Positions 1 to 14,378 of a stretch of 14,378 bases of DNA are shown here, piece after piece. Origin of the DNA: a virus; UHGV virus genome UHGV-0315315, one strand, 5' to 3'. How positions within the stretch are numbered: the stretch's first letter is position 1; each line of letters opens with the position of its first letter. The translations under genes were made by a program, and so were the position numbers. The notes below the pieces were generated by a model that had not been told where the DNA came from, searched no databases, and saw nothing but the letters and a program-made list of their open reading frames with translations.

Positions 1-322
1 CTGCATGCATATATGGGTAGAAAGTATATGCAAGATGTGAGAAAAACACAGCAAGACAGGCGATACCTCTGAGACCGTCCGCATTACTATTGTGTTCTTG
101 AGCAACACTCATGAAAATTAACCTATGTTTAGAGTAATGTAGCCTAAAACGCCTAATCAAAAATAGGCGGATACCTTTGAGGCCATTCTAGCCTGAGGTT
201 AATCAAGATACCATTATGCTTTCATATCCAATCTGGCCGGAAGCGTCGCATCTGTTTCTCGCTAAGTATCAACGTAGTAAGCATCCATCAGCTCACTGAT
301 TATTCACTTTCTTAAAACTGCT
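1..322. other. Unassigned AT-rich flank beyond the point where sheath-gene homology ends (host DNA or another element)
   Basis: No ORF of 60 aa or more in any frame in the track; sheath-like translation diverges around 320-326; no recognisable tRNA or IS terminus by eye. Confidence 0.3.
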
Positions 323-577
323 AACAACAACCGTCACGGGTTTTGACTGGTCGGCAATTGCATCCAGCGAACGGGCCAGCGTGCCGGACTCGCCTGCTTT
401 ACCGCTGGCCTCCAGCACATCCGTCAGCAGAACCGGCTTATTGAGAGGGAACACGGACGCATCAGCATCATCGCCGGTGCAGACCATACCCACGATAGCA
501 GTGCTTACCGTGGTGAGGGAGCGGGTGCCGTCGTTAACTTCAACAACGCGCACCCCGTGGTGGTAATCCTGAGCCAT
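293..577 (-). pseudogene. FI: Truncated contractile tail sheath gene (P2 FI-like), N-terminal fragment only
   Basis: 94-aa ORF. N-terminus MAQDYHHGV...[10 protein letters not shown] follows the conserved N-terminus of P2-family sheath proteins (recollection, not searched). Similarity ends at about aa 85 and the frame stops 9 codons later (SSFKKVNNQ*). Full-length sheaths are several-fold longer. AGGAGG lies 6-11 nt upstream of the ATG at 577. Confidence 0.75.
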
Positions 578-653
578 AGTGGCGAACCTCCTGATTGGAT
601 TAGGCTTCGCCCTATGTTGAAGTGATTGTGCCTGACAAACAGCTAAGCGCAGT

Positions 654-671
654 TGTGTCGTTATTCACACA
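654..671 (-). promoter_or_regulatory. TGT-N12-ACA dyad, candidate Ogr/Delta-type late-promoter activator site upstream of the sheath gene (PF-like)
   Basis: tgtGTCGTTATTCACaca read directly at 654-671. Centre (~662) is ~85 nt upstream of the sheath ATG at 577, compatible with an activator site centred near -55 plus a ~30 nt leader. Confidence 0.4.
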
Positions 672-719
672 AAATAACGGTATTTGTCTGCTTGCAGGGA
701 TAATCAACATAATGCTGAT

Positions 720-1286
720 TCAGGGGGATTCATTGATCTTATTTGCCGGAAATTTTCTATAAATGGTAGAAACGCCTACATCAAAAATCAGTGCAATACG
801 CTGTCTTGATTCTCCGGCCTCGAGTAAACGCCCAATCTGTGCCCACTGTTCGGTGGTCAACTTAGGACGGCGTCCACCTACTCTGCCTTTGGCACGAGCT
901 GCAGCCAGCCCTGCCCTGGTACGTTCAACTATCAGTTCGCGTTCCATTTCAGCCAGGGCACCCATGACATGAAAAAAGAAACGGCCCATTGGGGTACTGG
1001 TATCAATACTGTCAGTCAGGCTTCTGAAATTCACACCACGCTGGCGCAACTCTTCTATCAGCGTAACAAGATGCCGCATACTGCGCCCCAACCTGTCCAG
1101 CTTCCAGACAACCAGCGTGTCTCCTGCCGATAGTGTCCTGAGTAGTTTTTTCAGCCCCGGTCTGTCGGACTTAGTGCCACTGATTTTGTCCTCAAAAATC
1201 CGCTCACATCCCGCGCAGTTCAGTGCATTACGTTGCAAATCGGTGTTCTGGTCATTTGTTGACACGCGTACATAGCCAATAAGCAT
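720..1286 (-). CDS. Serine DNA invertase (Gin/Pin/Cin/Hin family)
   Basis: Track ORF 720..1292 begins at a TTG; the first ATG is at 1286 (MLIGYVRVSTNDQ...). Catalytic-serine motif GYVRVSTNDQ of resolvase/invertase recombinases and a C-terminal HTH-like tail (GVSTIYRKF). Near-colinear with remembered Pin/Gin sequences. Confidence 0.9.
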   Translation of the reverse strand: MLIGYVRVSTNDQNTDLQRNALNCAGCERIFEDKISGTKSDRPGLKKLLRTLSAGDTLVVWKLDRLGRSMRHLVTLIEELRQRGVNFRSLTDSIDTSTPMGRFFFHVMGALAEMERELIVERTRAGLAAARAKGRVGGRRPKLTTEQWAQIGRLLEAGESRQRIALIFDVGVSTIYRKFPANKINESP

Positions 1287-1341
1287 GATCAATCCCCTGA
1301 ATAAAAACCGGGGATGATGCCAGTTAGCCGTTATCTCTGCA

Positions 1342-1367
1342 TTTTCATAAACGTTGGTTTTGGAGAA
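1342..1367. repeat. Left crossover site of the invertible segment (hix/gix-like 26-bp site)
   Basis: TTTTCATAAACG-TT-GGTTTTGGAGAA. Its reverse complement matches the site at 3088-3113 at 21 of 26 positions (hand alignment). Half-site resembles the TTATCAAAAACC-type consensus of Hin/Gin sites. Flanking similarity continues to about 1377. Confidence 0.7.
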
Positions 1368-1649
1368 GGTGCTAACTGGGTTATGTTACCTGGAGGAATG
1401 ATAATTCAGCGTGTTTATCTTGGATTTCCTATTGGCACCAATGCAAGACACATAACTTTCCCCCGGTCGTTTACAACAACGAACTATTCCATCTCAATTA
1501 ACTGGAATGATATCGGTACTGTAACAACTGAAACACAATCACCAGCAAATGTGGCGGTTGTTCATCAAACAAAATCATTAACAGGGGCCAGCATCTGGCA
1601 GGCAGGTCCCGGGGGATTTAATGTGGACATTATAGCGGTGGGGTATTGA
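1368..1649 (+). CDS. Alternative tail fibre C-terminal cassette (Hv'), silent in this orientation; no start of its own
   Basis: Reading frame runs through the left crossover site. The motif VGFGEGA here parallels LGLGEGA at H residues ~350-356, which overlaps the right crossover site. Would be joined to the constant part of H after inversion. The track Met at 1314 lies upstream of the site and is probably not used. Confidence 0.55.
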
Positions 1650-1650
1650 T

Positions 1651-2079
1651 ATGTACGTATGGAGCGCTAAATCAAATGGCTTTTTCCCCATATCGGAGAA
1701 AGAAAAATTTGAGGCATCAGGTCTGTGGCCTGATGATGGTGTAATAGTCAGTGAGGAAGAACATAAAAAGTTATTTATGGATATTCCACCAGGAAAACAG
1801 ATTGGAACACTGAATGGAAAACCAGCACTGATAGATATTCCTCAGCCGACCAAAAAGGAATTAATAGCTATTGCTGAAGTTAAAAAATCCCAATTACGGG
1901 AAAAAGCTGACAGTGAAATATCCTGGCGTCAGGATGCTGTTGATGCTGATATCGCAACTGATGAAGAAACTTCAACTCTCACCGAATGGAAGAAATACCG
2001 TGTGCTGCTGATGCGTGTTGATACTTCAACAGCACCCGATATTGAATGGCCTACGCCTCCGGCAGTTCAGGCCAGATGA
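1651..2079 (+). CDS. Alternative tail fibre assembly chaperone (Tfa'), partner of Hv'
   Basis: 142-aa ORF starting at an ATG that overlaps the Hv' stop (TGATATG). C-terminus ...[13 protein letters not shown] parallels the C-terminus of the minus-strand chaperone (...[13 protein letters not shown]), a conserved Tfa/gpG-type tail. Confidence 0.75.
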
Positions 2080-2644
2080 CATCCGGCGCGGTGCTGGTAT
2101 CTGTTGCCGTCACCGCGTCAATGTAATCCAGCACGGTGTTAAGTCGGGTTGTTTCTGCCTGAGTCAGTTTCCGTCCGGCCTGTAATTTCAGCTGAATCAG
2201 ACTAATGGAAGCCATTACTGCATCAATCAGTGACTGGCGCTGTGCTTCTGCTGCTTCTACTGCGGCACCGTGTTGTGCCTCAGTATCTGTCACCCATTTC
2301 TCACCATCCCATTTATCATATGGCGTTAACGGTGAAAGCGTGACATAACCGTTTTTGATGGCACCGATATAATCCACTGTAACAGCTGCGCCATTTTCTG
2401 TTGAGTAAACAGTCTCATTGCGATGGTCTTCTTCATGGCTCCATCCCTTACCCGTAAATACTGCCACTTTCCCCGGAATGTTTTCGCCCGGGTCAATACC
2501 AGTGGAACAGGCGGGCATACTTACGCCAGTATTAATATATTCATCAGACCAGCCCGTATACTCAGATGTTTCAGCATCATAATAAAAACAACGCATATCG
2601 CCCGGCACTGTGGCCAGCCCATTTTCATCAAAAACAGGTTTCAT
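2051..2644 (-). CDS. G: Tail fibre assembly protein (P2 G-like)
   Basis: 197-aa ORF. ATG overlaps the H stop (TAATG). Conserved Tfa C-terminal motif. Its 3' end overlaps the convergent Tfa' 3' end (2051-2079). Confidence 0.85.
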
Positions 2645-4149
2645 TATTTAGCCCTCACCAGAAAGTTAAATGCAATATTTCGCGGTCTGACAGCAACAAA
2701 ATTCACACCATCACCCACAGAGTTACTGGTGAAATTAAATCGTGAAAATCCTGGCTGATTTCCGGCGATGCCATCATGAAAGTTAATTGCGTGTCCCGCA
2801 CCTCCGCCTATATTCCCGGCAAACTGAGAAAAGTTTGTAGCTTCCTGCCAGCTTAATAATTCGCGACCACCGTCTGCACCTCGCCCGTCATCCCAGATAC
2901 GAATGAAATCACCGCGGGCTTCAGGTAATATCAGCGAAGGAAACACTTTCGCCAGCACAGGATAATCAGTGGCAGAGAATTTCGCGCCGTTGAACTTCAA
3001 AAACACCATACTGGACCAGCTGTCGATTACAGTATTTGGCATTGCAGCGGACGGCCAGAAGAACGGAACGCCAATAGCTGGAGCACCTTCTCCCAAACCA
3101 AGGTATGTGAGAAGACCAGCTACATCCTTTCCACTCAAATTGGTAAGCGTATTGTCCAGCGGTTGTTTACCTGCCAGCGCATTAAGCATTGTCGTGGCAA
3201 AGTTCGGATCATTCCCCAGTGCCGCCGCCAGTTCGTTCAGTGTATCCAGTGCAGCAGGTGCAGAACCCACCATTCCTGCAATCGCCGATTTCACAAAAGC
3301 CGTAGTGGCAATCTGTGTATTGTTGACCGACTGCGCCGCCGTGGGGGCTGTTGGCGTTCCGGTGAGTGCCGGACTCGACAACGGTGCTTTAAGTGCCAGC
3401 GCATTGTTAATGGTGGTACTGAAATTCGGATCATTGTTAATGGCTGCGGCTATTTCTTTCAGCGTGTCCAGCGTGGCTGGCGTACCATTAATAAGGGCCG
3501 TCAGTGCCGCCTGTACAAACGCAGTGGTCGCAACCTGCGTGGTATTATTCCCCGCCGCTGGCGTTGGCGCTTTGGGGGTTCCGGTAAATGTCGGGCTGGC
3601 TTTTGGCGCGTACTGTGAATGCGGGTCCGGTGCGGCAAGATGTTTTGCCATCTGATCATCCGCGTACACCTTCAGCTCCAGTGCCTTGTCATCCACATAC
3701 TTGCGGGTTGCCAGCACTACAGCAGGGTCGATTTTCAGGGTGATATTGTCCGTGCTGCTGGTAATCAGCACCATGCGCACGGTCTGAGTGCGCCCGCTAC
3801 CTTCAGCCAGTTGCGGCTTATAGCTTTCCGGGCAGTTGCCCACAGCAATCAATGCCCCGGACTCATCAAACAAGCCCACTTCACGTATCCACCAACCGCC
3901 CTCGTTTTCAGGGATCACCTGTTCGGCAATAATCTGGCTGCTGTTCTGCGGGTCGATATAAAGCATATTCAGCGCAGCCCGGCGTTTCTCATTTACCAGT
4001 GCCGTCTGCTTTGCGTCCGGCGTTGGCAATACTCCACCGCCATCGCCCACCGCCATATAGGTAATTTTTAGCGGCACACCGAGCGCGGCGGCGCTGGCAA
4101 GTTTCGCCGCGCCAATATCCGTCAGCAGGGTATAAAATTTTGTGCTCAT
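2644..4149 (-). CDS. H: Tail fibre protein (P2 H-like): constant N-terminal part plus currently fused variable tip
   Basis: 501-aa ORF. Repeated ...NNTQ(V/I)ATTAFV... units typical of phage tail fibre repeats. Position upstream of the chaperone gene; crossover site embedded at codons ~346-354. Confidence 0.9.
   Translation of the reverse strand: MSTKFYTLLTDIGAAKLASAAALGVPLKITYMAVGDGGGVLPTPDAKQTALVNEKRRAALNMLYIDPQNSSQIIAEQVIPENEGGWWIREVGLFDESGALIAVGNCPESYKPQLAEGSGRTQTVRMVLITSSTDNITLKIDPAVVLATRKYVDDKALELKVYADDQMAKHLAAPDPHSQYAPKASPTFTGTPKAPTPAAGNNTTQVATTAFVQAALTALINGTPATLDTLKEIAAAINNDPNFSTTINNALALKAPLSSPALTGTPTAPTAAQSVNNTQIATTAFVKSAIAGMVGSAPAALDTLNELAAALGNDPNFATTMLNALAGKQPLDNTLTNLSGKDVAGLLTYLGLGEGAPAIGVPFFWPSAAMPNTVIDSWSSMVFLKFNGAKFSATDYPVLAKVFPSLILPEARGDFIRIWDDGRGADGGRELLSWQEATNFSQFAGNIGGGAGHAINFHDGIAGNQPGFSRFNFTSNSVGDGVNFVAVRPRNIAFNFLVRAK
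3088..3113. repeat. Right crossover site of the invertible segment, inside the H coding sequence
   Basis: TTCTCCCAAACC-AA-GGTATGTGAGAA; inverted relative to 1342-1367; central AA dinucleotide as in hix-type sites. Confidence 0.7.
3157..3603. repeat. Tandem duplication (~222 bp, ~74 codons, two copies) inside the tail fibre gene
   Basis: H residues ~184-257 and ~258-331 are two diverged copies (SPTFTGTPKAPTPAAGNNTTQVATTAFV...DPNFSTTINNALALKAPL versus SPALTGTPTAPTAAQSVNNTQIATTAFV...DPNFATTMLNALAGKQPL). Corresponding DNA direct repeats are visible on the plus strand. Confidence 0.7.
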
Positions 4150-4751
4150 GGATTCACTCTCATTGTGTCAATAACATGGACCGCCCCGCCTTCATGCGCG
4201 GTGCCACCGGAAATAATCGTTTCGTTGATATACGGATAGATCGTGATTTCTTCGCCAAGATAGCTGGCGGCTCCCACCCAATGCGGGCCGCTGGTCTGCA
4301 GATTGATGGACATGCCGATCATGTGGCGGCTACATGGTTTGGCATCGCTTATCAGTCGCTCAAGTTCCAGATAGGTATCTTCAGTGATGCCCTGGTCCTG
4401 CACGCCGATATCCAGGCGAAACGTGCCCGGTGTTTCTCCGGTCTGCCACCACTCAATAATGCGGATCAGGAATCCGAACGGTTCCACCACCCGCCGCACG
4501 GCACTGGTGGTTCCTTTATGCTGATGAATATAAAAAGCATCCTTCACTACCTGGCGTTTGACGCTTTCTGTCCAGCCCTCGTCCCAGCGATCCACAGAGA
4601 ACGCCCAGGCGAGATAAGGCAGGAAGCTGACCGGACAGGTAGCCGGATTCCACAAGTCACGCAGCGGCACCTGCAAATCAGAAATCCCGCTACAGGTTTG
4701 CGCCAGTCGGCGCTCCAGTGAAGTTGAACCCGGTGGCAGCAGACTATTCAT
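4146..4751 (-). CDS. I: Baseplate assembly protein (P2 I-like)
   Basis: 201-aa ORF, ATG start, 4-nt overlap with H start; gene order J-I-H; family recalled from sequence. Confidence 0.85.
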   Translation of the reverse strand: MNSLLPPGSTSLERRLAQTCSGISDLQVPLRDLWNPATCPVSFLPYLAWAFSVDRWDEGWTESVKRQVVKDAFYIHQHKGTTSAVRRVVEPFGFLIRIIEWWQTGETPGTFRLDIGVQDQGITEDTYLELERLISDAKPCSRHMIGMSINLQTSGPHWVGAASYLGEEITIYPYINETIISGGTAHEGGAVHVIDTMRVNP

Positions 4752-5652
4752 CCGTTCCTCCGTTGGTTACGCTCCACTGCGTACATGATGCCGCCTGTGT
4801 TTTGTTCAGGACCACATCCGCCAGCGGAGAAGCCAGTTCCACACGTTGAACACCCTCAACATGCAGAGCAGCAAAGATGGCGCTACGGCGAATATCCCGA
4901 CCAAGCCTCGTCTGGCTGGCAATGTACTTCTGCAGACTGGCTTTTGCCGCTGCCATTACCGGCTCTGCTTCCGGTCCCGGATAGAGAAAAATGGTGGCAT
5001 CCACGCGATACGGGATTATTTCTGCGCTGCGAACCGTAAGACGGTCAGCCACCGGGCGGACGTTCTCACTGTTCAGAGCTTTTTCCACCACATCCAGCAG
5101 GTCTTTTTCTGCTGTTCCGTCGCCTTCGCGGCTAAGGACAGTCAGCACCACCTCTGCAGGAGCCGGACTGGTTGCACTGGCATCCGCCACCCGACCGTCG
5201 GCGCTTCGGGCATGAAATTCATAAGCTGCGGTTGGCCCCGCAACTGAAAGCCCCTCAAAGGCTGCAGGCACACGCAGGCGTAACGCTTCATCGCTTTCCA
5301 TCACAGCCGCAACGGGCGGCACAGCGTCATTATCAGCAGGCGTCACCGTCAGGCGTTTCACGTTGTAGTTGGCAGCGATCTGGTCAAGATCGCCGCCCAT
5401 CGCGTAAGCCACCATTACCGCCTGCGCGGCTTCGTTAATGCGCTGGCGCAGAAGCAACTCACGGTAAGCGTTCTCCTGCAACAATTTGGTGACGGGTTCA
5501 GATTCCAGTTCCAGCGTGCGGATCACTGCTTCCTGCTCATCTTTCGGATGAAGCGCAACAAATTCGGCCTTGCGTTCGGCAAGCAGCGTCTCAAAGTCCG
5601 GCACATCGACAATCTGCGGCGCAGGCAACTGCGAAAGGTCAATCACTGCCAT
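4744..5652 (-). CDS. J: Baseplate assembly protein (P2 J-like)
   Basis: Track ORF extends to a GTG at 5691. Preferred start is the ATG at 5652 (MAVIDLSQLPAP...) with AGGAG 7-11 nt upstream. Confidence 0.85.
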   Translation of the reverse strand: MAVIDLSQLPAPQIVDVPDFETLLAERKAEFVALHPKDEQEAVIRTLELESEPVTKLLQENAYRELLLRQRINEAAQAVMVAYAMGGDLDQIAANYNVKRLTVTPADNDAVPPVAAVMESDEALRLRVPAAFEGLSVAGPTAAYEFHARSADGRVADASATSPAPAEVVLTVLSREGDGTAEKDLLDVVEKALNSENVRPVADRLTVRSAEIIPYRVDATIFLYPGPEAEPVMAAAKASLQKYIASQTRLGRDIRRSAIFAALHVEGVQRVELASPLADVVLNKTQAASCTQWSVTNGGTDE

Positions 5653-5998
5653 TCTCTGCTCCTGTTGATACGGAAAGGGAAACAGGCACACCGTTATTAC
5701 GCCGCCCGGTCAGCCCCACCACCATTGAACCGTCAAAATTGCTTTTAATGGTGATGGAATCCAGCGTCAGCCGTGGCTCCCAGCGACTCAGCGCCACATA
5801 CACTGCCGACATGACCTGCAGGCGTAATGCCGGATTTTGTGGCTGGTCTATCAGTGCCGACAGCAGGGAACCATATTCCCGACGGGCAATGCGGCTACCC
5901 TGCGGCGTCAGCAAAATGTCCCGCACCGACTGGCGCAGATGGTCAATATCAGTAATGGCTTTACCGCTGGTATTGTTCATCCCGCTATAAAGCGTCAT
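5639..5998 (-). CDS. W: Baseplate wedge protein (P2 W-like, gp25 / lysozyme-like fold family)
   Basis: 119-aa ORF; ATG overlaps the V stop (ATGA); size and position typical. Confidence 0.85.
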   Translation of the reverse strand: MTLYSGMNNTSGKAITDIDHLRQSVRDILLTPQGSRIARREYGSLLSALIDQPQNPALRLQVMSAVYVALSRWEPRLTLDSITIKSNFDGSMVVGLTGRRNNGVPVSLSVSTGAENGSD

Positions 5999-6573
5999 AC
6001 CGGGCCTCCGGTTGTGTCGCCGCCTTTCAGGACGCCAGTATGCTGATGTGCATCAACCACAATTCCGTTAGAACTCATTGCACCGCCGCCCTGGGTAACA
6101 CCACCATTGATCACTACTTCGCTGTTAATGCGTGTGCGGTCAGCCTCCAGTACAAACTCACTGGTTTTCAGGGTGATGTTGTCGGCAGCTTCAATGACCA
6201 TGGATTTGATTCCCCTGACATACCAGCGCCCGGTAGCGGGTTCGTATTCAAACCAGCCACCGTCAGGATGTTCTGTCACACAGGCGTCCACCGACGCCGA
6301 CGGTGGTGCGAACTGATTCGAATAGACAGCGGGCAGCGCAAAGGCGGTTTCCAGATTGCCGCCCAGACTCAGCAGCACCACCTGCTCACCTTCCGATGGT
6401 CGCCACCATGTGCGGGCATTACCCGCGCGCAGCGTCAGCCAGTTAATCCAGTTGGTTTCAAGGTCGCCCGTTTTCACCCGACAAAGCCAGTGTTCCCGGT
6501 CCACTTCGGTGACTACACCAGTGCGGATCAGGTTGGTGATAAGGCGCATGATTTCGGTTAATTGTGCGTTCAT
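5995..6573 (-). CDS. V: Baseplate spike / assembly protein (P2 V-like)
   Basis: 192-aa ORF; N-terminus MNAQLTEIMRLITNLIRTG resembles remembered P2 V; first gene of the V-W-J-I-H-G block. Confidence 0.85.
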   Translation of the reverse strand: MNAQLTEIMRLITNLIRTGVVTEVDREHWLCRVKTGDLETNWINWLTLRAGNARTWWRPSEGEQVVLLSLGGNLETAFALPAVYSNQFAPPSASVDACVTEHPDGGWFEYEPATGRWYVRGIKSMVIEAADNITLKTSEFVLEADRTRINSEVVINGGVTQGGGAMSSNGIVVDAHQHTGVLKGGDTTGGPV

Positions 6574-6619
6574 AATTTAATCATGCCGAGATAAGATTGA
6601 TAAAAAAACTCTTTAGTTT

Positions 6620-6637
6620 TGTGCCAGTTATGATACA
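6620..6637. promoter_or_regulatory. TGT-N12-ACA dyad in the divergent V / ATPase intergenic region; possible late-promoter activator site (PV-like)
   Basis: tgtGCCAGTTATGATaca read directly. Located where a PV-type promoter is expected, but its centre is only ~55 nt from the V ATG, so spacing is not canonical. Confidence 0.25.
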
Positions 6638-6673
6638 AAGTGCATTTACTCATGGACTAAATAAAGGATTCCT

Positions 6674-7933
6674 ATGTTTAGATTATCTAGTGTCAAGATT
6701 GAAGGTTTTTGGGGAAGACTAAATGCATCATGTTCATTTAATGAAGATGTAAATATTATTATTGGTCGAAATGGGACCGGTAAAACAACCTTTATGAATA
6801 TTCTTCACTCAGTTCTGGCATTAGAACTCGAATCACTAAATGAGAATAGTTTTGATAATGTAACAATAAAAATAAAAGAAGGAAGCAAAACTAAAACAAT
6901 AAAAGTTGTGAGTAAATTTGACATAACTAAAGCTTTGCCTACGTTTGAATATACAATTTCTAGAAAGAAATATATTATCAGATCCTTTGAAGATCGTAGA
7001 CTACCTATTTATATGAGGAGAAAATATCAGGAAGACGTTGAAAAACTTAAATTAGAGTTAGATAAATTAGTTGCTTTATCTTCTCTATCAGTTTACCGAC
7101 TTAGAAGCGGTGAAGATTTTGAAATCAGAGACAAATATGGCTCAAAATTAATCAACCCTGTTGATTACCGATTAGAACAATTATTGCAGAACCTAACAAA
7201 ATATCAACTTTATTTATCACAAAGAGCTCGTGATGTTTCTGCAATATTACAGAAAGAGGTTCTTGCTTCTATTCTTTATAGTAAAGAAGATGGTATCGAT
7301 GACACATTTAACTTTTCTTTTGATAAAGAAAAAGAACGTAGAAATTTAATAGCTGCATATTCTCAGCTTGGAGCTTTTGATAGTGATGTCAGAAAGAAGA
7401 TTAACTTTCACGTTGAATCTATTGCCAAAACATTTGAAGAATTACGACTTGCAGAAAAAAATAACAGAAATATTTTAAATGTAGATTACAGATCATTTGA
7501 GGCATTACGAAAGACGCAAAGAATTATAAAGATGTCTTTAAAATCCGAGGAGAAAATAAAAAACATATTTCTTCCTATAAATCTATTTTTAGAAACATTA
7601 CATGAGTTCATAACCGATAAAAAATTTAATTTTATCTCCGGTGAGCTAGTAATAGAAAACGAGCATGGGCCGATTAGCCATAGTAATTTATCGTCTGGTG
7701 AAAAACAGCTATTAATTCTTTTTATTGAAACTTTGCTACAGCAAAACAAACCTTTCATCTATCTTACTGATGAACCAGAATTATCGCTACATATTGCATG
7801 GCAACGAAAAATAATACCTGCAATCAAACAACTTAATCCTAATGCGCAAATTATCGCCGCTACGCATTCACCAGAAGTGGCTTCTAAATATCGAAATGCA
7901 ATCTTTGATATGGAGAAATTGGTTCATGGATGA
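6674..7933 (+). CDS. ariA: ABC-type ATPase (AAA_15/AAA_21-like, SMC/OLD-related); AriA-like component of a PARIS-type defence system
   Basis: 419-aa ORF. Walker A GRNGTGKTT (6764-6790), ABC signature-like LSSGEKQ (7688-7708), Walker B FIYLTDEPE (D366/E367 at 7769-7774), H-loop AATHSPE. K/E-rich probable coiled-coil insert between the lobes. AGGAT 5-9 nt before the ATG. Strongly AT-rich compared with flanking phage genes. Confidence 0.7.
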   Translation: MFRLSSVKIEGFWGRLNASCSFNEDVNIIIGRNGTGKTTFMNILHSVLALELESLNENSFDNVTIKIKEGSKTKTIKVVSKFDITKALPTFEYTISRKKYIIRSFEDRRLPIYMRRKYQEDVEKLKLELDKLVALSSLSVYRLRSGEDFEIRDKYGSKLINPVDYRLEQLLQNLTKYQLYLSQRARDVSAILQKEVLASILYSKEDGIDDTFNFSFDKEKERRNLIAAYSQLGAFDSDVRKKINFHVESIAKTFEELRLAEKNNRNILNVDYRSFEALRKTQRIIKMSLKSEEKIKNIFLPINLFLETLHEFITDKKFNFISGELVIENEHGPISHSNLSSGEKQLLILFIETLLQQNKPFIYLTDEPELSLHIAWQRKIIPAIKQLNPNAQIIAATHSPEVASKYRNAIFDMEKLVHG

Positions 7934-8777
7934 TTTCCATTATTCTGCCGAAGCAGAAAATGTAATGAATTTATTTTACCAAGCTGAAGCCATGGTTTAT
8001 GTTGAAGGCCCAGATGATATTTGCTTTTGGGAAATCATCTTTAATAAAGCTAGTTCATTAAAGGTTGAAATCAAAGATGTTGGCGGCTGTGAAGAATTAA
8101 AAAAATATATTGATAGAGTTACTGATGAAGATCTTCAAATTATAATTGCATGTGATGCAGACTTCACTACATTTGAAAATGAGGAAAACGCTGATAGTCG
8201 CATTGTAAAAACTTATGGGCACTCCATCGAAAACACGTTTATTGACAAAACAGGCATATATAAGGCAATAAAAACTCTCGGAAAATTACCTCAAAAGATA
8301 ATGAACGATGTCAACGTCGATTCTTGGACAGAAGACTTTTATACCAAAATGGAACCCCTAATAAAACTTGATATATACAATCATATTTATAGAAAAGGCA
8401 TTTCAGTTATTGGTGACAGTGCAGATCGTTTCATGAAATCTAGAAAATCAAATGAAATTTGCGAGCAAAAAATCACGAGTTACAAAAACACCATCATTGA
8501 AAAATTAGGTGTGGAACCAGATAACATCGATTCATCTTTCAAATCAAAATCGATAGAATACAGAAAGTGGCTTAGAGGTCATTTTCTTTTTTCTGCAGTA
8601 CATAGGTACATTAGCACAACTGCAGAAAAAAATGGAAAAAAAGTATCCTTATCATATGAATCATTATATTCCAATTTAATGAATACATTTGAATCTAATT
8701 TTACCAATGCTCATATTGAGTTTAATCATTACCACGAAAAAATTAAAGCCATAAATATGCCACACGAAATGAAATAA
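7926..8777 (+). CDS. ariB: Toprim / DUF4435-like protein (OLD-family nuclease-like); AriB-like effector of a PARIS-type system
   Basis: Track ORF starts at an internal in-frame ATG at 7842 inside the ATPase gene. Preferred start is the ATG at 7926 overlapping the ATPase stop (ATGGATGA) with GGAG ~10 nt upstream. Candidate Toprim acidic residues: E in YVEGPDD (8004-8006) and DxD in IIIACDADF (8154-8162). No HNH or zinc-finger pattern seen. Confidence 0.6.
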   Translation: MDDFHYSAEAENVMNLFYQAEAMVYVEGPDDICFWEIIFNKASSLKVEIKDVGGCEELKKYIDRVTDEDLQIIIACDADFTTFENEENADSRIVKTYGHSIENTFIDKTGIYKAIKTLGKLPQKIMNDVNVDSWTEDFYTKMEPLIKLDIYNHIYRKGISVIGDSADRFMKSRKSNEICEQKITSYKNTIIEKLGVEPDNIDSSFKSKSIEYRKWLRGHFLFSAVHRYISTTAEKNGKKVSLSYESLYSNLMNTFESNFTNAHIEFNHYHEKIKAINMPHEMK

Positions 8778-8779
8778 GA

Positions 8780-8799
8780 AAAAATACAGATGTATTTTT
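8780..8799. terminator. Candidate bidirectional hairpin between the convergent Toprim gene and S
   Basis: aaaaataca-ga-tgtattttt, a perfect 9-bp inverted repeat followed by a T-run on the plus strand. The stem is A/T-only, so predicted stability is low. Confidence 0.25.
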
Positions 8800-8802
8800 A
8801 TA

Positions 8803-9249
8803 TTATTTAGATAACCATTCAAATAGGGTATCCTTGATTTGATAATATTCTTTATCGTGGATACCCAATAGCTTACGCTCTGCGTAACGGACCTCAGGTC
8901 CTTTGCGACTGACGCGATCACGCAGGCCGTAGTGATGAACGCGGGCAATGCGCTGCACCTTGCCTTCAAACTGCACGCTGGCAGAATCGGCGCTGGCGGC
9001 AGTTTTCAGGTATTTTGTGGTGCGCAGCTTCGCAAACATCTGACGTTTAATGCGGCCTTTTTTACTGCGTGCTGTTACCCGTCGCGGTTCATAGCTGCTG
9101 CCGTCAGGGTTGCGCTGCATCCTGATATTCTGCTGCTGTGTCCGGCGAAGTTCCTGCGCCAGTTGGCGCATCATACGGCTTCTTGCGGCTGGCTCCAGAT
9201 TCGCCAGCAAGGCACTCAGCCAGTCGTCCACCTTCTGCAATTCAGCCAC
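8803..9249 (-). CDS. S: Tail completion / virion morphogenesis protein (P2 S-like)
   Basis: 148-aa ORF; start codon is GTG at 9249, overlapping the R stop; family recalled from sequence. The last ~20 codons lie in AT-rich sequence. Confidence 0.8.
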   Translation of the reverse strand: MAELQKVDDWLSALLANLEPAARSRMMRQLAQELRRTQQQNIRMQRNPDGSSYEPRRVTARSKKGRIKRQMFAKLRTTKYLKTAASADSASVQFEGKVQRIARVHHYGLRDRVSRKGPEVRYAERKLLGIHDKEYYQIKDTLFEWLSK

Positions 9250-9673
9250 GTTTCACCGTCCACATTTCTTCAGGTTCATCGGGTTCCGCTACAGCTTCAA
9301 CGCTGGACACTGTGCCGTCAGTGCTGACCAGCACACGTTCCGTCAGTTGCAGGTTAAGGCTGATATCACAGACATCGTTGCGCAGAATATCCACCTCAAA
9401 GGTGAATAACTTTTCCCGTAAAGCGGGATTATTGATGGCATCGGGCTGGTTATCACGCAGCCACAGCAAAACCGGGGCCATCAACAGATTCTGGTCACCA
9501 CTGAAATCCTCTATCACCACGTTCAGGGTGTAGCGGTACTCCCATGACATGGAGCTGGCCCCCGTGGCAACCAGCGAACCGTTATCCACAAACAGATGCA
9601 GTTTGTCCGGGTTATTACGGACATAAGGCACTGCTTTATTAAGGGCGTGGCGCAGGGATTGTGGTTTGTTCAC
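9242..9673 (-). CDS. R: Tail completion protein (P2 R-like)
   Basis: Track ORF begins at a TTG (9694). Preferred start is the GTG at 9673 (VNKPQSLRHAL...) with AGGAG ~7 nt upstream. Confidence 0.8.
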   Translation of the reverse strand: MNKPQSLRHALNKAVPYVRNNPDKLHLFVDNGSLVATGASSMSWEYRYTLNVVIEDFSGDQNLLMAPVLLWLRDNQPDAINNPALREKLFTFEVDILRNDVCDISLNLQLTERVLVSTDGTVSSVEAVAEPDEPEEMWTVKRG

Positions 9674-9926
9674 TGTTTCGCTCCTGACACGCAATAATCA
9701 TGTCCACTTTGTCTGCACAGACCGCCCAGGCGGCCTCCGTTTCATCCAGCAATGCGTTCAGATCACCGTTAGTGCGCGGCGCTGTCTGATCCAGCCGACA
9801 CGGCGTCACTCGCGGACAACCACTGACGGTAAGCTGCACCTCCGGTGAGTGCCGGACGTTCCCGCAGCCGGATAATGTCAGCAGGCAAAGGAGTATCAGC
9901 CCAGCGGCGTAAATCCTCGTTCTCAC
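9639..9926 (-). CDS. lysC: Outer-membrane lipoprotein spanin (LysC / Rz1-like), overlapping the 3' part of lysB in another frame
   Basis: 95-aa ORF, GTG start; signal peptide with lipobox LTLSGC; Pro-rich C-terminus; overlaps lysB (9769-9926) and the R start. Confidence 0.6.
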   Translation of the reverse strand: MRTRIYAAGLILLCLLTLSGCGNVRHSPEVQLTVSGCPRVTPCRLDQTAPRTNGDLNALLDETEAAWAVCADKVDMIIACQERNSEQTTIPAPRP

Positions 9927-10197
9927 GTTTCAGTTCCTCGATCCGGCGTTGTCGTTGTCTCAGCTGTGCGCTGGTCTGTTCTGCTTCGGCATAGAGCCGC
10001 GCCTGCTCCCGGTTATTAGTTTCAGTCAGAATGGACAGGCTGATAAGCTGGCTGTTGCTCTTTGCCAGTGCCTGACTTTTGCTCTGCAGCTCGTCTGCCT
10101 GCGTGCTGATGGTCTGGCTGGCATCAGCCAGCCGCCACGTCTGCCAGCCCAGCGCCGCCAGTAATAACGCCAGCACAACCAGCAGCAACCGGTTCAT
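9769..10197 (-). CDS. lysB: Inner-membrane spanin (LysB / Rz-like)
   Basis: 142-aa ORF; N-terminal transmembrane helix (LLLVVLALLLAALGW) followed by a charged coiled-coil-like region; ATG overlaps the lysA stop (ATGA). Confidence 0.7.
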   Translation of the reverse strand: MNRLLLVVLALLLAALGWQTWRLADASQTISTQADELQSKSQALAKSNSQLISLSILTETNNREQARLYAEAEQTSAQLRQRQRRIEELKRENEDLRRWADTPLPADIIRLRERPALTGGAAYRQWLSASDAVSAGSDSAAH

Positions 10198-10571
10198 GCT
10201 GCTACCTGTTGCGCCATCTGATTACGGGTGATCCAGAAGGCAATAACGGTCAGTAGATAAAAGACCAGGGTAATAGCCCACCCCGTCCAGGCGAGACTTA
10301 CGACAATCAGCAATCGCATCACCCAGCTGATAAATACGTTTTCTTTTCGGGTAATGGTCTTCAGCAAAGATGCCCTCAACTCCTGCCAGAGCGAGCCATT
10401 CTTAATTAACGCAGCCAGTGCTACCGGAATTACCGCCCATGTCAGTAAACAGGCTACCCAAACGCCGGACGCTGCCAGTACCGGAAAAATCCCCTGCGGA
10501 TACACCATTGCTGCAATTAACAGCGCCATCCATAACATCAGAAACAGCCCGCTGATTAATTTCTTTTTCAT
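10194..10571 (-). CDS. lysA: Lysis-timing membrane protein (LysA-like)
   Basis: Track ORF extends to 10643. Preferred start is the ATG at 10571 (MKKKLISGLF...) directly after the endolysin stop. Multiple hydrophobic helices. Confidence 0.6.
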   Translation of the reverse strand: MKKKLISGLFLMLWMALLIAAMVYPQGIFPVLAASGVWVACLLTWAVIPVALAALIKNGSLWQELRASLLKTITRKENVFISWVMRLLIVVSLAWTGWAITLVFYLLTVIAFWITRNQMAQQVAA

Positions 10572-10572
10572 T

Positions 10573-11085
10573 TCAGTTTGCTCCCTGTAAACACCAGGCC
10601 ATCTCCCGCGCACGGCGGTTATCCAGCCCCTGATTAAACACACCTTTCACATAAACCCAGCGCGGTAACTGTCGGCACGCATCCGCCCAGCGCCGCTGAT
10701 TGAGCAATTTCACCAGTGTGGAACTGCAGGCATTGCTAGTTCCCACGTTGAAGGCAAACGACACCGTAGCGTCATACACCTTCTGTGGTGGCTGTTGCTT
10801 CACACACCTTTCCAGTGCCCGCTCCACACGCAGCACGTTGGAGATCAGCCCTTCTGCTGCCTGTCGTTCCGTGATTGTTTTGCCGGGAATGACGCCCGAT
10901 GTATTACCAATGCCGTCGGTCCAGACACCCGCGCTGCACTGATACGGCTGCAGACGACAGCCTTCGTAATCGGCAATCAGTTTCAGCCCTTCCACGGACG
11001 TATGAAGCTGCTGAAAGCCCGGCAGCGTGGCAGCAATAGCCAGCACGGCCCCGACAAGGCAGCGTTTAACGACTGATGGATTCAT
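10573..11085 (-). CDS. Endolysin, T4/P21-type lysozyme with SAR-like N-terminus
   Basis: 170-aa ORF. Weakly hydrophobic Gly/Ala-rich N-terminal segment (CLVGAVLAIAATLPGF) followed by the lysozyme catalytic region EG...D...GVWTDGIGNT. Resembles P21 R-type SAR endolysins (recollection). Confidence 0.85.
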   Translation of the reverse strand: MNPSVVKRCLVGAVLAIAATLPGFQQLHTSVEGLKLIADYEGCRLQPYQCSAGVWTDGIGNTSGVIPGKTITERQAAEGLISNVLRVERALERCVKQQPPQKVYDATVSFAFNVGTSNACSSTLVKLLNQRRWADACRQLPRWVYVKGVFNQGLDNRRAREMAWCLQGAN

Positions 11086-11281
11086 AGTCCTCCCGCGAGA
11101 TCTGCCCGTCGCGCAGAAGCTGGTAGGCTTTGTGTTTGTAGTACCAGTTGATAGCCAGCATCAGCACACCAATCATCAGGCCGCCCAGCGTTGAGATATC
11201 CTTGATGGACAAATCGCCCAGCCAGGCCAGCACGACGGCGATGCAATACGTGATAAAGGCGCTGATTCGCTCAAGCGTCAT
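11066..11281 (-). CDS. Holin, two transmembrane helices (class II / pinholin-like)
   Basis: 71-aa ORF immediately upstream of the endolysin, overlapping its start by 20 nt; two hydrophobic helices and a charged C-terminus. Confidence 0.7.
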   Translation of the reverse strand: MTLERISAFITYCIAVVLAWLGDLSIKDISTLGGLMIGVLMLAINWYYKHKAYQLLRDGQISREDYESISR

Positions 11282-11284
11282 AAT

Positions 11285-11488
11285 TCAGTCCCATAGCTGG
11301 ACGGTCTGCACGGTGGTGGTTGCCGGAATGTCCGGCAGCTCCACCTGCAGCCCGTGAGGTAAAAAGGGGCCGTATTCGGCAAGCCCCGGATTTGCCTTCA
11401 GTACCTGCTCCGTGACACCCTGCGTGCGCCCGTAATGACGCCAGCAAAGCGCGTCCACCGTGTCATACTGATGCGCACGCACTTTCAT
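11285..11488 (-). CDS. X: Tail protein X (P2 X-like, LysM-like)
   Basis: 67-aa ORF, MKVRAHQYDTVDALCWRHYGRTQGV...; closely parallels remembered P2 gpX; ATG overlaps the L stop. Confidence 0.85.
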   Translation of the reverse strand: MKVRAHQYDTVDALCWRHYGRTQGVTEQVLKANPGLAEYGPFLPHGLQVELPDIPATTTVQTVQLWD

Positions 11489-11952
11489 CAGATAAGCTCC
11501 ACTGTGCAGTGCGGCGCATCCTGCACCCGGCTGATGGCCCAGCGGGCGTCACGCCACAAATCACCGCTTGCTTCCGCCAGTTCCTCGCCTCGCTTCACAC
11601 CGGACGCCGTGGCGTCATAGTCCTGATAACGCTCGTTGAGCATGGCGCGTGCCCAGCAGTAAACCGCGTTGAAATAGTGCTGAATGCGCTCACTTTTGCC
11701 GTCCAACTGTTCCGCCGGAACCTCAGCCAGCGACGCATACCCCAGCATCTGCTGACGTCTGCGAAACTCATACAGCTCTGCGTTGACCTCCGAAATTGCC
11801 GATAGCGCAACCTGCTTTAAACGCGGCTGCGTCACCGTGCCGTCAGTGCGCATCACACTGCGAAACTCCGACAGGTCCACATCAGGCCAGAACGGCGTAT
11901 TTCTGATGATTTCCGCCTGTTCCGGTGCCTGTTCTGGCGCAACAAACTTCAT
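11488..11952 (-). CDS. L: Head completion / stabilisation protein (P2 L-like)
   Basis: Track ORF extends to 12015. Preferred start is the ATG at 11952 (MKFVAPEQ...) with AGGAGA ~8 nt upstream. Confidence 0.85.
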   Translation of the reverse strand: MKFVAPEQAPEQAEIIRNTPFWPDVDLSEFRSVMRTDGTVTQPRLKQVALSAISEVNAELYEFRRRQQMLGYASLAEVPAEQLDGKSERIQHYFNAVYCWARAMLNERYQDYDATASGVKRGEELAEASGDLWRDARWAISRVQDAPHCTVELI

Positions 11953-12047
11953 GCTGCTTTCTCCTGAAATAAAGGGCGGTGGACGGGGTTTTGATGTGGC
12001 AGAGCCTTTCGCCACCCCGTGCCGCCCGTGCGCGGGGGCACGTTCTG

Positions 12048-12698
12048 TCAGCGGCTGTCATTGCGCAGTCTGCGCTCCAGCTGCTGTTTGTCTTTTTTCA
12101 CGCCACAGCGGGGATCGAGCTGTAACGCATGGTTGAGATGATTAAGGGCGAAAGCCGGATTGCTTTCACTCAGGACTGCGCCAATCGCTTTATGCAGACG
12201 CGCCCGTGACTGGTCCGGCATATCCAGATCGTCTGTCAGTTCCAGCGTCTGCAGCAACAGATCAGCATCAAAGCCGATGGCGGCAAGCATTGCGCTCTGC
12301 GCTGCGTCTGCCATTTCCTCTGCCAGCACGGTCTGCACGTTGCGGTTACCCAGCGGCATCACCCAGCCATGACGCAGGGCATGACGCCCGATCTCCAGCG
12401 CCCCGGCATAATCTCCGGCATCAATGCGCCACAGCATCACGTACATCAGCACGTCATCCTGCTGTGCGCCTCCGGCAGCCAGGACACCCTCCGCCCAGGC
12501 GGCGTACTTCGGCAGCAGCTCCACTTTGATTTCCGCTTTTTTGACCGTGGACTGAACGCCCTTGAGACGGCGGCGGTCTTCCGCCAGTTGCAGCAGCATC
12601 AGGTCATAGCCCGACGCGTGGCGAACACTGCCGCCCTCGCGGGCGGCCTGTTCAGCCTGAACGCGCAGGCGATGCTGCCGTGCGGGACTCAGGCTCAT
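12048..12698 (-). CDS. M: Terminase small / endonuclease subunit (P2 M-like)
   Basis: 216-aa ORF; conserved ...LMYVMLWRIDAGDYAGALEIGRHAL... core recalled from the P2 gpM family; position between N and L. Confidence 0.85.
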   Translation of the reverse strand: MSLSPARQHRLRVQAEQAAREGGSVRHASGYDLMLLQLAEDRRRLKGVQSTVKKAEIKVELLPKYAAWAEGVLAAGGAQQDDVLMYVMLWRIDAGDYAGALEIGRHALRHGWVMPLGNRNVQTVLAEEMADAAQSAMLAAIGFDADLLLQTLELTDDLDMPDQSRARLHKAIGAVLSESNPAFALNHLNHALQLDPRCGVKKDKQQLERRLRNDSR

Positions 12699-12701
12699 GG
12701 T

Positions 12702-13757
12702 TTATGCTCCGGCTTCTGCGGCGGTGCTGAAGTCGCCAATCTGGATGTTTTCCACCAGTGCTGCGCAGCGGTAGTCCTCAACCACATAGGCTTCGTTAAC
12801 GGATTCAAAGTTTTCAATCCGGTCACGTTTCGGGTTGTCGATAACTGAACGGCGGCGGGTGTCTTCCTGCCAGTAGATGGACAGGTTATCCAGACGGGTG
12901 ATCAGCAGCGCATTCGGCGGGAAGAACGGCGCACGCACGGCCTGCAGGCCACCCATGCGTTTCTGGCTGATGATCATATCGGCAGCCAGTTTTTCACTGT
13001 TTTCCTGCTCTTTGTTGACCAGCGGGAAATACTTATCAGACAACAGTTCACGACCGCAAATCACCACCAGATCGTCATCGTCCTGGTAGACCACGTCGAT
13101 AAGCTCATTAACGGCATCCATCACCACGGCGTCCAGGTTGGCATATTCGCCACCTTTACCGACTTTCACCGCGCCCGGTGTGGTTTCACCGCCCGTGGTG
13201 GTGCTGCCCATGACGTGATCCGGTGCATCCTCACGGATTTTCTGCAGCCAGCCTTTATTCACATCCTGCAGCAGCGGGTTTTCGCTACGGTTGGAGGTTT
13301 TCGCACGCTTCACGCCGTTAAAGCCGATCATGATGCGGTCCAGTGCCTGACGTTTCACGATGGCGTCACGGATACGCACCTGAAAATCCTGAAACTTCGC
13401 CCACAGGTCCAGCTTCGCGTAGGTCAGCACCGTGTCAAAGTTGGTCTGCTCGCATTTATATTCCACATCGACCATCAGCGTCGGATCGACAGGTTCACGC
13501 TCTTTCGCGGTGGTATCAGTGGTTCCGGCAATGGTGCTGCCAACTCCCAACCCCAGCAGCTGACCGGACTGCTCAGTCACTGGCGTGACGTTAATCAGCG
13601 TCAGGAAAGCGGCGGACTGCTGGATCTGGTCTTCCAATGTCTGCTGCACGGACGGCTCTACGGTGAACTTACTGGAGAGTTCTTCAATCTCCACACCATT
13701 CAGGCGCGCCAGCTGCTGCAGGTAAGCGTTAAAGGCAAAGCGGGTTTTCTTTTTCAT
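12702..13757 (-). CDS. N: Major capsid protein (P2 N-like)
   Basis: 351-aa ORF, ATG start (MKKKTRFAFNAYLQQLA...); length and position typical of the P2 capsid protein. Confidence 0.9.
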   Translation of the reverse strand: MKKKTRFAFNAYLQQLARLNGVEIEELSSKFTVEPSVQQTLEDQIQQSAAFLTLINVTPVTEQSGQLLGLGVGSTIAGTTDTTAKEREPVDPTLMVDVEYKCEQTNFDTVLTYAKLDLWAKFQDFQVRIRDAIVKRQALDRIMIGFNGVKRAKTSNRSENPLLQDVNKGWLQKIREDAPDHVMGSTTTGGETTPGAVKVGKGGEYANLDAVVMDAVNELIDVVYQDDDDLVVICGRELLSDKYFPLVNKEQENSEKLAADMIISQKRMGGLQAVRAPFFPPNALLITRLDNLSIYWQEDTRRRSVIDNPKRDRIENFESVNEAYVVEDYRCAALVENIQIGDFSTAAEAGA

Positions 13758-13773
13758 CGGGTTTTATGCTCCA

Positions 13774-14378
13774 TCAGCAATTGGTCAGGGTGCCTGCCGG
13801 TGCGTCACCGCCCGGCGCGCGCTGGCGGTAATCCTTGCGGCTGTCTTCAATGCTCAGCTTTTGCTCAAGCTCGGCAAAGGCGGCCTGCTGCTCCTGCAGG
13901 GAGGACTCCAGCTCAGAAAGGCGCTGCTCCTGATCGGACAGGGATTTTTCCGTGCGCTCACTCAGGTTCTGCTGCTCAGTAGCGACCAGCTCCACGGCTT
14001 TATGCACATCAGAGAATCGCGCATCGTCGGTCTGCTCTTTTTTGGTGAACAACGCGGTGACGCGGGCAAAGAGGGACGGCTTTTCGTCCTGGGCTTCTTC
14101 GAGTTCGATCAGCGTTTCTTCGGCAGCGGTAAACAGGTTTTCAGGATTCTGCTTACGGTTTGCCAGCGGGTTATGTGCGGCACTGGCGCTGAATGCCAGC
14201 ATTTCGGTGCCGAGACTTGCCGGATCATCTGTTGCCGCCAGCCCCACAAGATAGGCTTTACCGGTGTCAGCAAACTTCGGGCTGACCTCCATGGAGGTAA
14301 ACAGCTTCTGGCCTTTTTTCACCAGTGCCACCAGGGAGTCTGTCGGTTCAACATCGGCGTAAAGTGCCATCTTGCCCG
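13774..14378 (-). CDS. O: Capsid scaffolding protein (P2 O-like), 5'-partial: continues past the right edge of the window
   Basis: Open frame continues upstream of the track Met at 14370 to the window end. C-terminus ...GGDAPAGTLTNC matches the conserved scaffold C-terminus. The visible ~200 codons are the C-terminal part of a longer protein. Confidence 0.85.
   Translation of the reverse strand, partial: GKMALYADVEPTDSLVALVKKGQKLFTSMEVSPKFADTGKAYLVGLAATDDPASLGTEMLAFSASAAHNPLANRKQNPENLFTAAEETLIELEEAQDEKPSLFARVTALFTKKEQTDDARFSDVHKAVELVATEQQNLSERTEKSLSDQEQRLSELESSLQEQQAAFAELEQKLSIEDSRKDYRQRAPGGDAPAGTLTNC

Follow-up and report, generated by a model that had tools for sequence, protein, structure and literature searches.

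How did the tail sheath gene at the left end of a P2-like element come to stop after about 85 codons, and does the prophage itself end there? The window analyzed here, the whole 14,378-nucleotide (nt) stretch of virus genome UHGV-0315315, carries on its minus strand an open reading frame (293..577) that encodes 94 amino acids (aa), beginning with MAQDYHHGV and ending with SSFKKVNNQ before a stop. An earlier note made from the sequence had described a sheath ORF that keeps ~85 conserved codons and then runs through 9 unrelated codons to a stop, and translation, Pfam, and tblastn all agree with that description. The ORF is an FI sheath pseudogene composed of FI nt 1 to 254 (window 577..324), followed by 9 foreign codons and TGA (323..293) that come from an inverted acyltransferase upstream region. 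The FI share of 254 nt corresponds to 84 codons plus 2 nt, and codon 85 spans the joint with a foreign third base that retains Val, giving FI residues 1 to 85 in the product.

The only Pfam match of the stub is Gp18_domIII_N (PF22671), at residues 27 to 85 (E = 6e-10); the Phage_sheath_1 core and Phage_sheath_1C C-terminal domains are absent, whereas the FI proteins of intact relatives (~390 aa) carry all three sheath domains. When the intact 390-aa FI of a close relative (clade 1, L014) was compared with the window by tblastn, only residues 1 to 85 aligned, at 577..323 with 90.6% identity, and no FI similarity past residue 85 was detected in any frame left of base 324. Compared with the clade-2 mosaic FI of L002, residues 1 to 85 of the stub differ at 2 positions. 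FII, E, T, U, D, and ogr gave no tblastn match anywhere in the 14.4-kb window, which bears out the claim that tail tube, tape measure, D, and ogr do not follow the sheath. Thus, FI residues 86 to 390 and all downstream P_F-operon genes are missing from the window, making the 94-aa ORF a dead stub of FI, the tail sheath gene of P2-type phages. The note gave the P2 order as sheath, tube, tape measure, D, ogr, and integrase; in an integrated prophage, ogr abuts host DNA, on the side of ybjL or ssrA, and the integrase is at the opposite end. An exact look-up of the 94-aa product returned no record, and protein searches with the stub, the acyltransferase, and its N terminus yielded frameshifted or contig-end fragments and FI::FII fusions, with no inverted arrangement. 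Every prophage found by look-up of the window's invertase, H, and J proteins had its 390-aa FI intact.

Could the premature stop be a sequencing error, the example that the earlier note gave of what would refute it? Many short FI products in public records are frameshifts around an A4C3 run at codons 77 to 80, so there would be precedent for an FI that is intact but for a frameshift or nonsense error. The DNA left of base 324, however, has no FI similarity in any frame and is 99% identical to a different locus, leaving this explanation with virtually no chance of being right. In the window sequence as it stands, the truncation is a novel joint, not the result of a frameshift or nonsense error. 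The claim that no open frame continues and that the next ~320 bp are free of ORFs is therefore correct for FI, which has no frame left of 324, but not for the flank as a whole, where 112..2 encodes 37 acyltransferase codons.

What is the DNA on the other side of the joint? The note had suspected host or insertion sequence (IS) DNA. A search with bases 1 to 340 matched only five P2-like prophages, over the start of an acyltransferase gene, with no match in the phage collection and no IS or host annotation. Bases 1 to 323 match five E. coli chromosomes at 93 to 99% identity, always across the start of a gene annotated as "acyltransferase family protein" (99.1% over 323 nt to E. coli tcmA_3 and PSS-15, and 99.7% to L035). 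On the minus strand, 1..112 holds the initial 37 codons (MSVAQEHNSNADGLRGIACLAVFFSHLAYTFYPYMHA; translated from 112..2; 99.1% identity to the five E. coli genomes) of an Acyl_transf_3 (OafA/Oac-type) gene carried by phages, with the gene exiting at the left edge so that the window starts at its codon 37. This N terminus is identical over 37 aa, and a full-length relative is a 379-aa protein with Pfam domain PF01757 (Acyl_transf_3; E = 4.5e-26). The complete native upstream noncoding region of the gene (113..323, no strand assigned) follows, colinear with positions 15113 to 15323 of L002, the tcmA_3 prophage; bases 113 to 292 are noncoding in the window as well, and bases 293 to 323 are read as the foreign codons of the stub. 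GC content is ~0.39 to 0.44 in 113..323 (~0.39 just left of the joint) versus ~0.6 in the FI stub.

In tcmA_3, the 379-aa acyltransferase is part of an intact P2-like prophage, located between the tail fiber assembly gene G and FI and divergent from FI across a 305-bp spacer; in KSC64, the same module sits within a decayed P2-like remnant. The divergent arrangement of acyltransferase and FI across P_F is found in L002, L024, L025, L034, and L035. At its other end, the module in relatives borders a bidirectional terminator beside G. It has no terminal inverted repeats, transposase, or target duplication, and genome, phage, and protein searches found no example of it outside the G/FI slot. An IS or transposon origin of the left flank was rejected, given the matches solely to P2-like prophages and the lack of terminal inverted repeats. 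Judged from these matches, bases 1 to 323 are P2-type phage cargo DNA, neither host nor IS. Since the left partner is P2-like prophage cargo, P2-type phage DNA continues leftward, and the idea that the prophage ends at this point is not supported. A simple terminal deletion fusing the prophage to host DNA or an IS would account for the truncated FI and the distal tail genes absent from the window; it is nevertheless very improbable, because the flank that it would have to explain matches only P2-like cargo, in five E. coli genomes and always between G and FI.

Some acyltransferase records are themselves partial. The 20 member sequences of protein group P0122 share one 320-aa partial acyltransferase that begins with codon 60, and the single contig that we read, L033 (positions 1 to 963; E. 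coli GCA_026736635.1), opens inside the gene at that codon. Should other assemblies turn out to break at codon 60 as well, this would hint at a repeat, an inserted IS, or a problem of coverage at that point. In a Citrobacter remnant from a metagenome-assembled genome (MAG) (L024, 4593 to 7272), a serine invertase, an alternative fiber tip, a partial assembly gene, and the acyltransferase module stand side by side, in a block that adjoins a CI repressor. L024 thus shows that a single decayed element can carry cargo of both the invertase and the acyltransferase type.

The two partners meet at 323..324 (no strand assigned), where ...TTAAAACTGCTA is joined to ACAACAACCGTCACGG... In a four-way nucleotide alignment, the switch of parents is abrupt, with zero shared bases, no microhomology, and no common k-mer. 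Megablast against 5,426 complete E. coli genomes found matches to window bases 1 to 1400 in 1,712 genomes and to the whole window in 3,027. Among the matches listed for the 1,712 genomes, E. coli homology starts exactly at base 324, and the homology of all five acyl-type genomes stops at base 323. Comparison with intact P2-like prophages, as the note had proposed, thus maps the FI endpoint exactly: homology is lost at base 324, FI nt 254. None of the 5,426 complete E. coli genomes spans the joint, and an exact 36-mer and an exact 22-mer across it had 0 matches in GTDB representative genomes, JGI metagenomes, and IMG/VR. The joint was therefore found in no public collection searched, and its existence in a cell would rest on the window sequence itself.

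The two pieces are also turned around relative to each other. Window bases 1 to 323 align to the plus strand of L002 and bases 324 to 578 to its minus strand, meaning that they are inverted compared with the natural arrangement, in which the two joined points are 348 bp apart in P2-like phages. Unlike in the parents, the acyltransferase gene and the FI stub of the window are both on the minus strand, and the parent's P_F is missing. At the break, the acyltransferase parent reads ...CTGCTA followed by TTGTGCCAGCGCTGGCACAGG, which is a TGT-N12-ACA box. The break falls 1 nt short of TGTGCCAGCGCTGGCACA, the parent's P_F box, an 18-bp perfect palindrome of the TGT-N12-ACA form located 75 to 92 nt upstream of the FI ATG. 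Each of the five FI-upstream types compared has a box of this kind there; left of the box, their sequences are completely divergent. On the FI side, the break at nt 254 lies inside TTGTTGTGCG (FI nt 248 to 257/258), a patch that is followed by sequence resembling the P_F box.

Several local mechanisms could be imagined for such a joint. Inversion through microhomology or inverted repeats was rejected: the P_F box and FI nt 251 to 264 have only the hexamers TTGTGC, TGTGCC, and GGCACA in common, and after an inversion through these hexamers, the joint should retain 22 bp, the 18-bp box and 4 further bases, which the window joint does not. The resident serine invertase is another candidate, as an intact copy lies 143 bp from the stub and, on the acyltransferase side, the joint is immediately preceded by TTTCTTAAAACT, which bears a loose resemblance to a cix half-site, so that pseudo-cix sites might have been recombined. 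By eye, however, TTTCTTAAAACT agrees with the window's own half-sites (TTCTCCAAAACC and similar) at only ~7 of 12 positions, the crossover dinucleotide would be offset from the joint, and the FI side (ACAACAACCGTC) has no half-site, which makes an invertase origin hardly credible.

Backward insertion of the acyltransferase module into FI at nt 254, with the tail operon continuing left of the window, deserves somewhat more weight. The window ends inside the acyltransferase gene, so FI nt 255 onward could lie further left, and the right end of the module is used precisely, with its whole upstream region kept. The module, on the other hand, lacks terminal inverted repeats, a transposase, and a target duplication, its other end in relatives is the terminator by G, and it was never found outside the G/FI slot in our searches; on balance, we regard insertion as unlikely. 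The statement that a deletion or rearrangement removed the rest of the element can be kept in part: a rearrangement, not a point mutation, cut off FI codons 86 to 390. As for deletion in particular, the 323 bases left of the joint do not tell tail-gene deletion, inversion-relocation, and insertion apart.

The positions of the two breaks raise a further question. Besides the window joint, the patch at FI nt 248 to 258 hosts two further events, the deletion that formed FI::FII fusions (described below) and a switch from clade-2 to clade-1 ancestry in the FI of the acyl-type E. coli prophage (nt 233 to 257). One reading is that a 348-bp unit, "P_F box plus FI nt 1 to 254," is a recurrent recombination module, its left edge being the exact acyltransferase-side break and its right edge having been used by three events. 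We consider this improbable. If it were true, through a structure- or protein-driven process at box-like sequences, it could be part of the cargo-swap mechanism at the P2 G/FI hotspot, and the inverted stub would be a by-product of that process. The coincidences at FI nt ~250 and at the edge of the P_F box were noticed post hoc, and homologous crossovers are anyway confined to a few conserved patches; the coincidences remain unexplained.

Does the stub belong to the same lineage as the rest of the element? The earlier note had treated the prophage as uniform, an assumption that fails at the nucleotide level. The backbone core (537..13636, minus strand) matches the intact prophages L026 (100% identity) and L014 (1 mismatch); it comprises P_F with FI nt 1 to 41, the invertase, H, I, J, W, V, AriA/AriB, S, R, the lysis genes, X, L, M, and most of N. 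L014 is an assembly with its prophage beside ybjL, and L026 is a metagenome contig; FI is intact and the tail operon complete in both. The late-gene order of the window is colinear with these two, at 99 to 100% identity, between N and FI nt 41, which places the element among the P2-like phages (Peduoviridae). Neither end of the window extends into host DNA. FI nt 42 to 247 (331..536, minus strand), by contrast, form a clade-2 tract with 38 mismatches to the clade-1 FI of L014 and L026, so that the stub is ~85% identical to the FI of an otherwise 100%-identical backbone. We could therefore reject the stub as the backbone's own FI, given 38 mismatches in FI nt 42 to 247 versus 0 to 1 in the next 13.1 kb. 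The tract is 98.4% identical to the FI of H9Ecoli and 95.3% to that of the acyl-type prophage L002; an acyl-type phage is thus no more than one candidate source of the stub, as H9Ecoli, with the higher value, has other cargo. The lineage is rare, with 20 of 861 records at or above 95% identity and H9Ecoli the best at 98.4%. At the other end, a patch covering the 5' end of N and gpO (13637..14378, minus strand), which exits the window, is ~85 to 90% identical to L014 and L026, with 74 mismatches from 13637 on versus L014 (whose locus ends at window 14149) and 110 versus L026. This patch is best matched (93.6 to 95.1%) by E. coli genomes carrying clade-2 FI, and the best of them, E7476, S1, L3Cip3, and Z226-5, are largely those matching the FI stub. 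An in-frame stop in gpO at the right edge turned out to be apparent only, as the frame is open to the window end. As read from the window sequence, the element is either a clade-2 backbone with a 13.1-kb clade-1 replacement or a contig wandering between co-resident prophages.

The related FI loci are mosaics in their own right. The tcmA_3 FI (L002, 15418 to 16590) is clade 2 up to nt ~247 and clade 1 from nt 258. In L034, the FI start to which the acyltransferase module appears linked is clade-1-like, with 85.5% identity to the window stub. Comparison of L002 with L034 suggests that either end of the divergent FI tract can serve as the boundary when the cargo block is recombined into place. 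In H9Ecoli (L016, 6338 to 9644), which has the FI allele closest to the stub, the G/FI slot is occupied by an MBOAT O-acyltransferase, a hypothetical gene, and an invertase that is frameshifted and of another type (75% identity).

Such a mosaic is also what an artifact might look like. Two or three P2-like prophages (clade-1 L014-type, clade-2, and acyltransferase type) wrongly linked during assembly or library preparation would leave the real sheath genes intact, and several observations fit: the joint is private to the window sequence in all collections searched, a common prophage shares the 13.1-kb core at 100% identity, while the lineage changes inside conserved genes on both flanks, and the switch within FI falls among the first 47 nt of the gene, which are invariant across the lineages and offer a place for a graph path to cross. 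The 20 partial acyltransferases grouped in P0122, with one contig read that begins within the gene, point the same way. A repeat-collapsed graph, however, cannot make a joint at 323/324 whose two sides have no common k-mer; chimeric molecules with consensus support would be required, and random ligation is not expected to hit both the edge of a promoter box and the end of the divergent FI tract. We accordingly rate a chimera as a rather doubtful explanation, although it is the most serious competitor of those weighed here.

The P_F late-promoter region (578..719, minus strand) is intact, of the L014/L026 type, and identical to L014; a pattern match places its own TGT-N12-ACA box at 654 to 671, 77 to 94 nt upstream of the FI ATG and in the same position as in the five other FI-upstream types. 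TGT-N12-ACA is the consensus of Ogr-dependent late promoters, and P_F drives FI-FII-E-E'-T-U-D (PMC3931495). Next to it lies an intact serine invertase of 188 aa (720..1286, minus strand) with Pfam Resolvase and HTH_7 domains, belonging to a tail fiber inversion system. Two cix-like inverted repeats of 32 nt, 84% complementary, are located at 1342 to 1373 and 3082 to 3113; they flank an invertible tail fiber segment with alternative fiber C termini and assembly genes (genes 1314 to 2644). Between V (5995 to 6573, minus strand) and S (8803 to 9249, minus strand), the plus strand encodes an AriA/AriB PARIS-like pair (6674 to 8777), an AAA_15/AAA_21 ATPase of 419 aa and a DUF4435 protein, recognized by PADLOC with E values of 6e-40 for AriA and 3e-24 for AriB. 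The two proteins are identical in the intact L014, and L026 has genes of equal sizes and domains. Another TGT-N12-ACA box is present at 6620 to 6637 beside the pair, presumably P_V. The claim that an intact invertase and a defense cassette were retained is thus well founded.

Taken together, we think that the joint was probably made by real, homology-independent recombination among P2-like sequences, which left a sheath pseudogene in an element made mosaic by exchange with clade 1. Illegitimate recombination would have fused FI nt 254, in inverted orientation, to the upstream end of the Acyl_transf_3 module. This might have happened by a local inversion or fold-back inside an acyltransferase-carrying element, or by the head-to-head joining of two P2-like prophages, which fits equally well; the local route is attractive because the joined points are natural neighbors 348 bp apart. 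The identical core would then stem from a clade-1 phage by homologous exchange, one crossover lying in FI nt 1 to 47 and the other near the start of N. The number of events needed, one illegitimate joint plus two homologous crossovers, counts against this explanation. If an inversion took place, it predicts a reciprocal joint, ...GCTGGCACAA next to GCGTGTGCCGCAGG..., that is, the inverted P_F box beside FI nt 255.

How does this locus compare with known P2 systems? Its gene order, O-N-M-L-X-lysis-R-S-V-W-J-I-H, is as in P2, and at the P_F operon, the 85 residues of the stub are 90.6% identical to clade-1 FI, with the TGT-N12-ACA box at the usual distance, but the window is without FI residues 86 to 390 and every downstream operon gene. 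P2 remnants with a truncated FI are common among complete genomes: in three complete E. coli genomes, KSC64, FDAARGOS_1250, and GDSC2227PM, a P2-like remnant has FI cut internally and keeps cargo at the G/FI slot, in KSC64 the same acyltransferase module. Unlike the window joint, these are colinear internal deletions, in which FI' is fused to the tape-measure gene or lies near ogr. The three also retain the ogr end and the host junction, whereas the window has an inverted cargo partner and no linked distal tail genes.

Another parallel is an FI(1-86)::FII fusion in Salmonella bongori and Citrobacter (protein groups P0031 and P0003), whose FI break falls in the same ~10-nt patch TTGTTGTGCG. It is located at L023 8001 to 8453 (Salmonella bongori CP035676, beside ybjL) and at L024 7576 to 8028 plus L025 (Citrobacter, MAG), and the Citrobacter copy has the same acyltransferase module upstream, 96.6% identical to window bases 1 to 323. 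The fusion arose by a microhomology-mediated colinear deletion and has an open 150-aa frame, in contrast to the window joint, which is inverted, has no microhomology, and runs into a stop after 9 codons. The 150-aa frame consists of FI residues 1 to 86 and the last 64 FII residues, joined in frame via the microhomology TTGTNGTGCG. The two genera share this joint; their copies differ at 36 of 453 nt, with a pN/pS of ~0.3. The fusion may be an old remnant that has been maintained or converted by recombination.

Defective P2-like elements that keep near-identical defense genes have been described, and no consistent pattern of a pseudogenized core component was seen among inactive elements, though the primase was hit more often (PMC13586616). 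The window resembles those elements in having a core gene inactivated while its AriA/AriB are identical to those of intact relatives; it differs in the gene hit, the sheath, and in its junction type, neither of which is mentioned there. What is new here is the inverted joint to cargo DNA together with the mosaic background, as truncated FI and defense retention were already known.

With FI cut at codon 85, at least one essential virion gene is inactivated, as in other defective prophages, and we propose to annotate the element as a defective mosaic P2-like prophage with a sheath pseudogene, and its left bases as phage cargo (O-antigen-type acyltransferase) instead of host or IS DNA. P_F is predicted to be still able to drive the stub, now reading toward the acyltransferase gene. 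No sheath is expected to be produced, and tube, tape measure, U, D, and ogr are unlinked, which would leave the element unable to build tails by itself; retained intact are the invertase, the tail fiber and baseplate genes, the lysis genes, and the PARIS-like pair. Overall, this is an ordinary defective mosaic prophage shaped by ordinary prophage decay. It adds an example of a disabled P2 element that keeps its defense pair and invertase, in agreement with recent surveys. Beyond this locus, its significance is modest: the edge of the P_F box and FI nt ~250 are where breakpoints in or beside FI cluster, a pattern that may bear on how cargo is exchanged at P2 hotspots.
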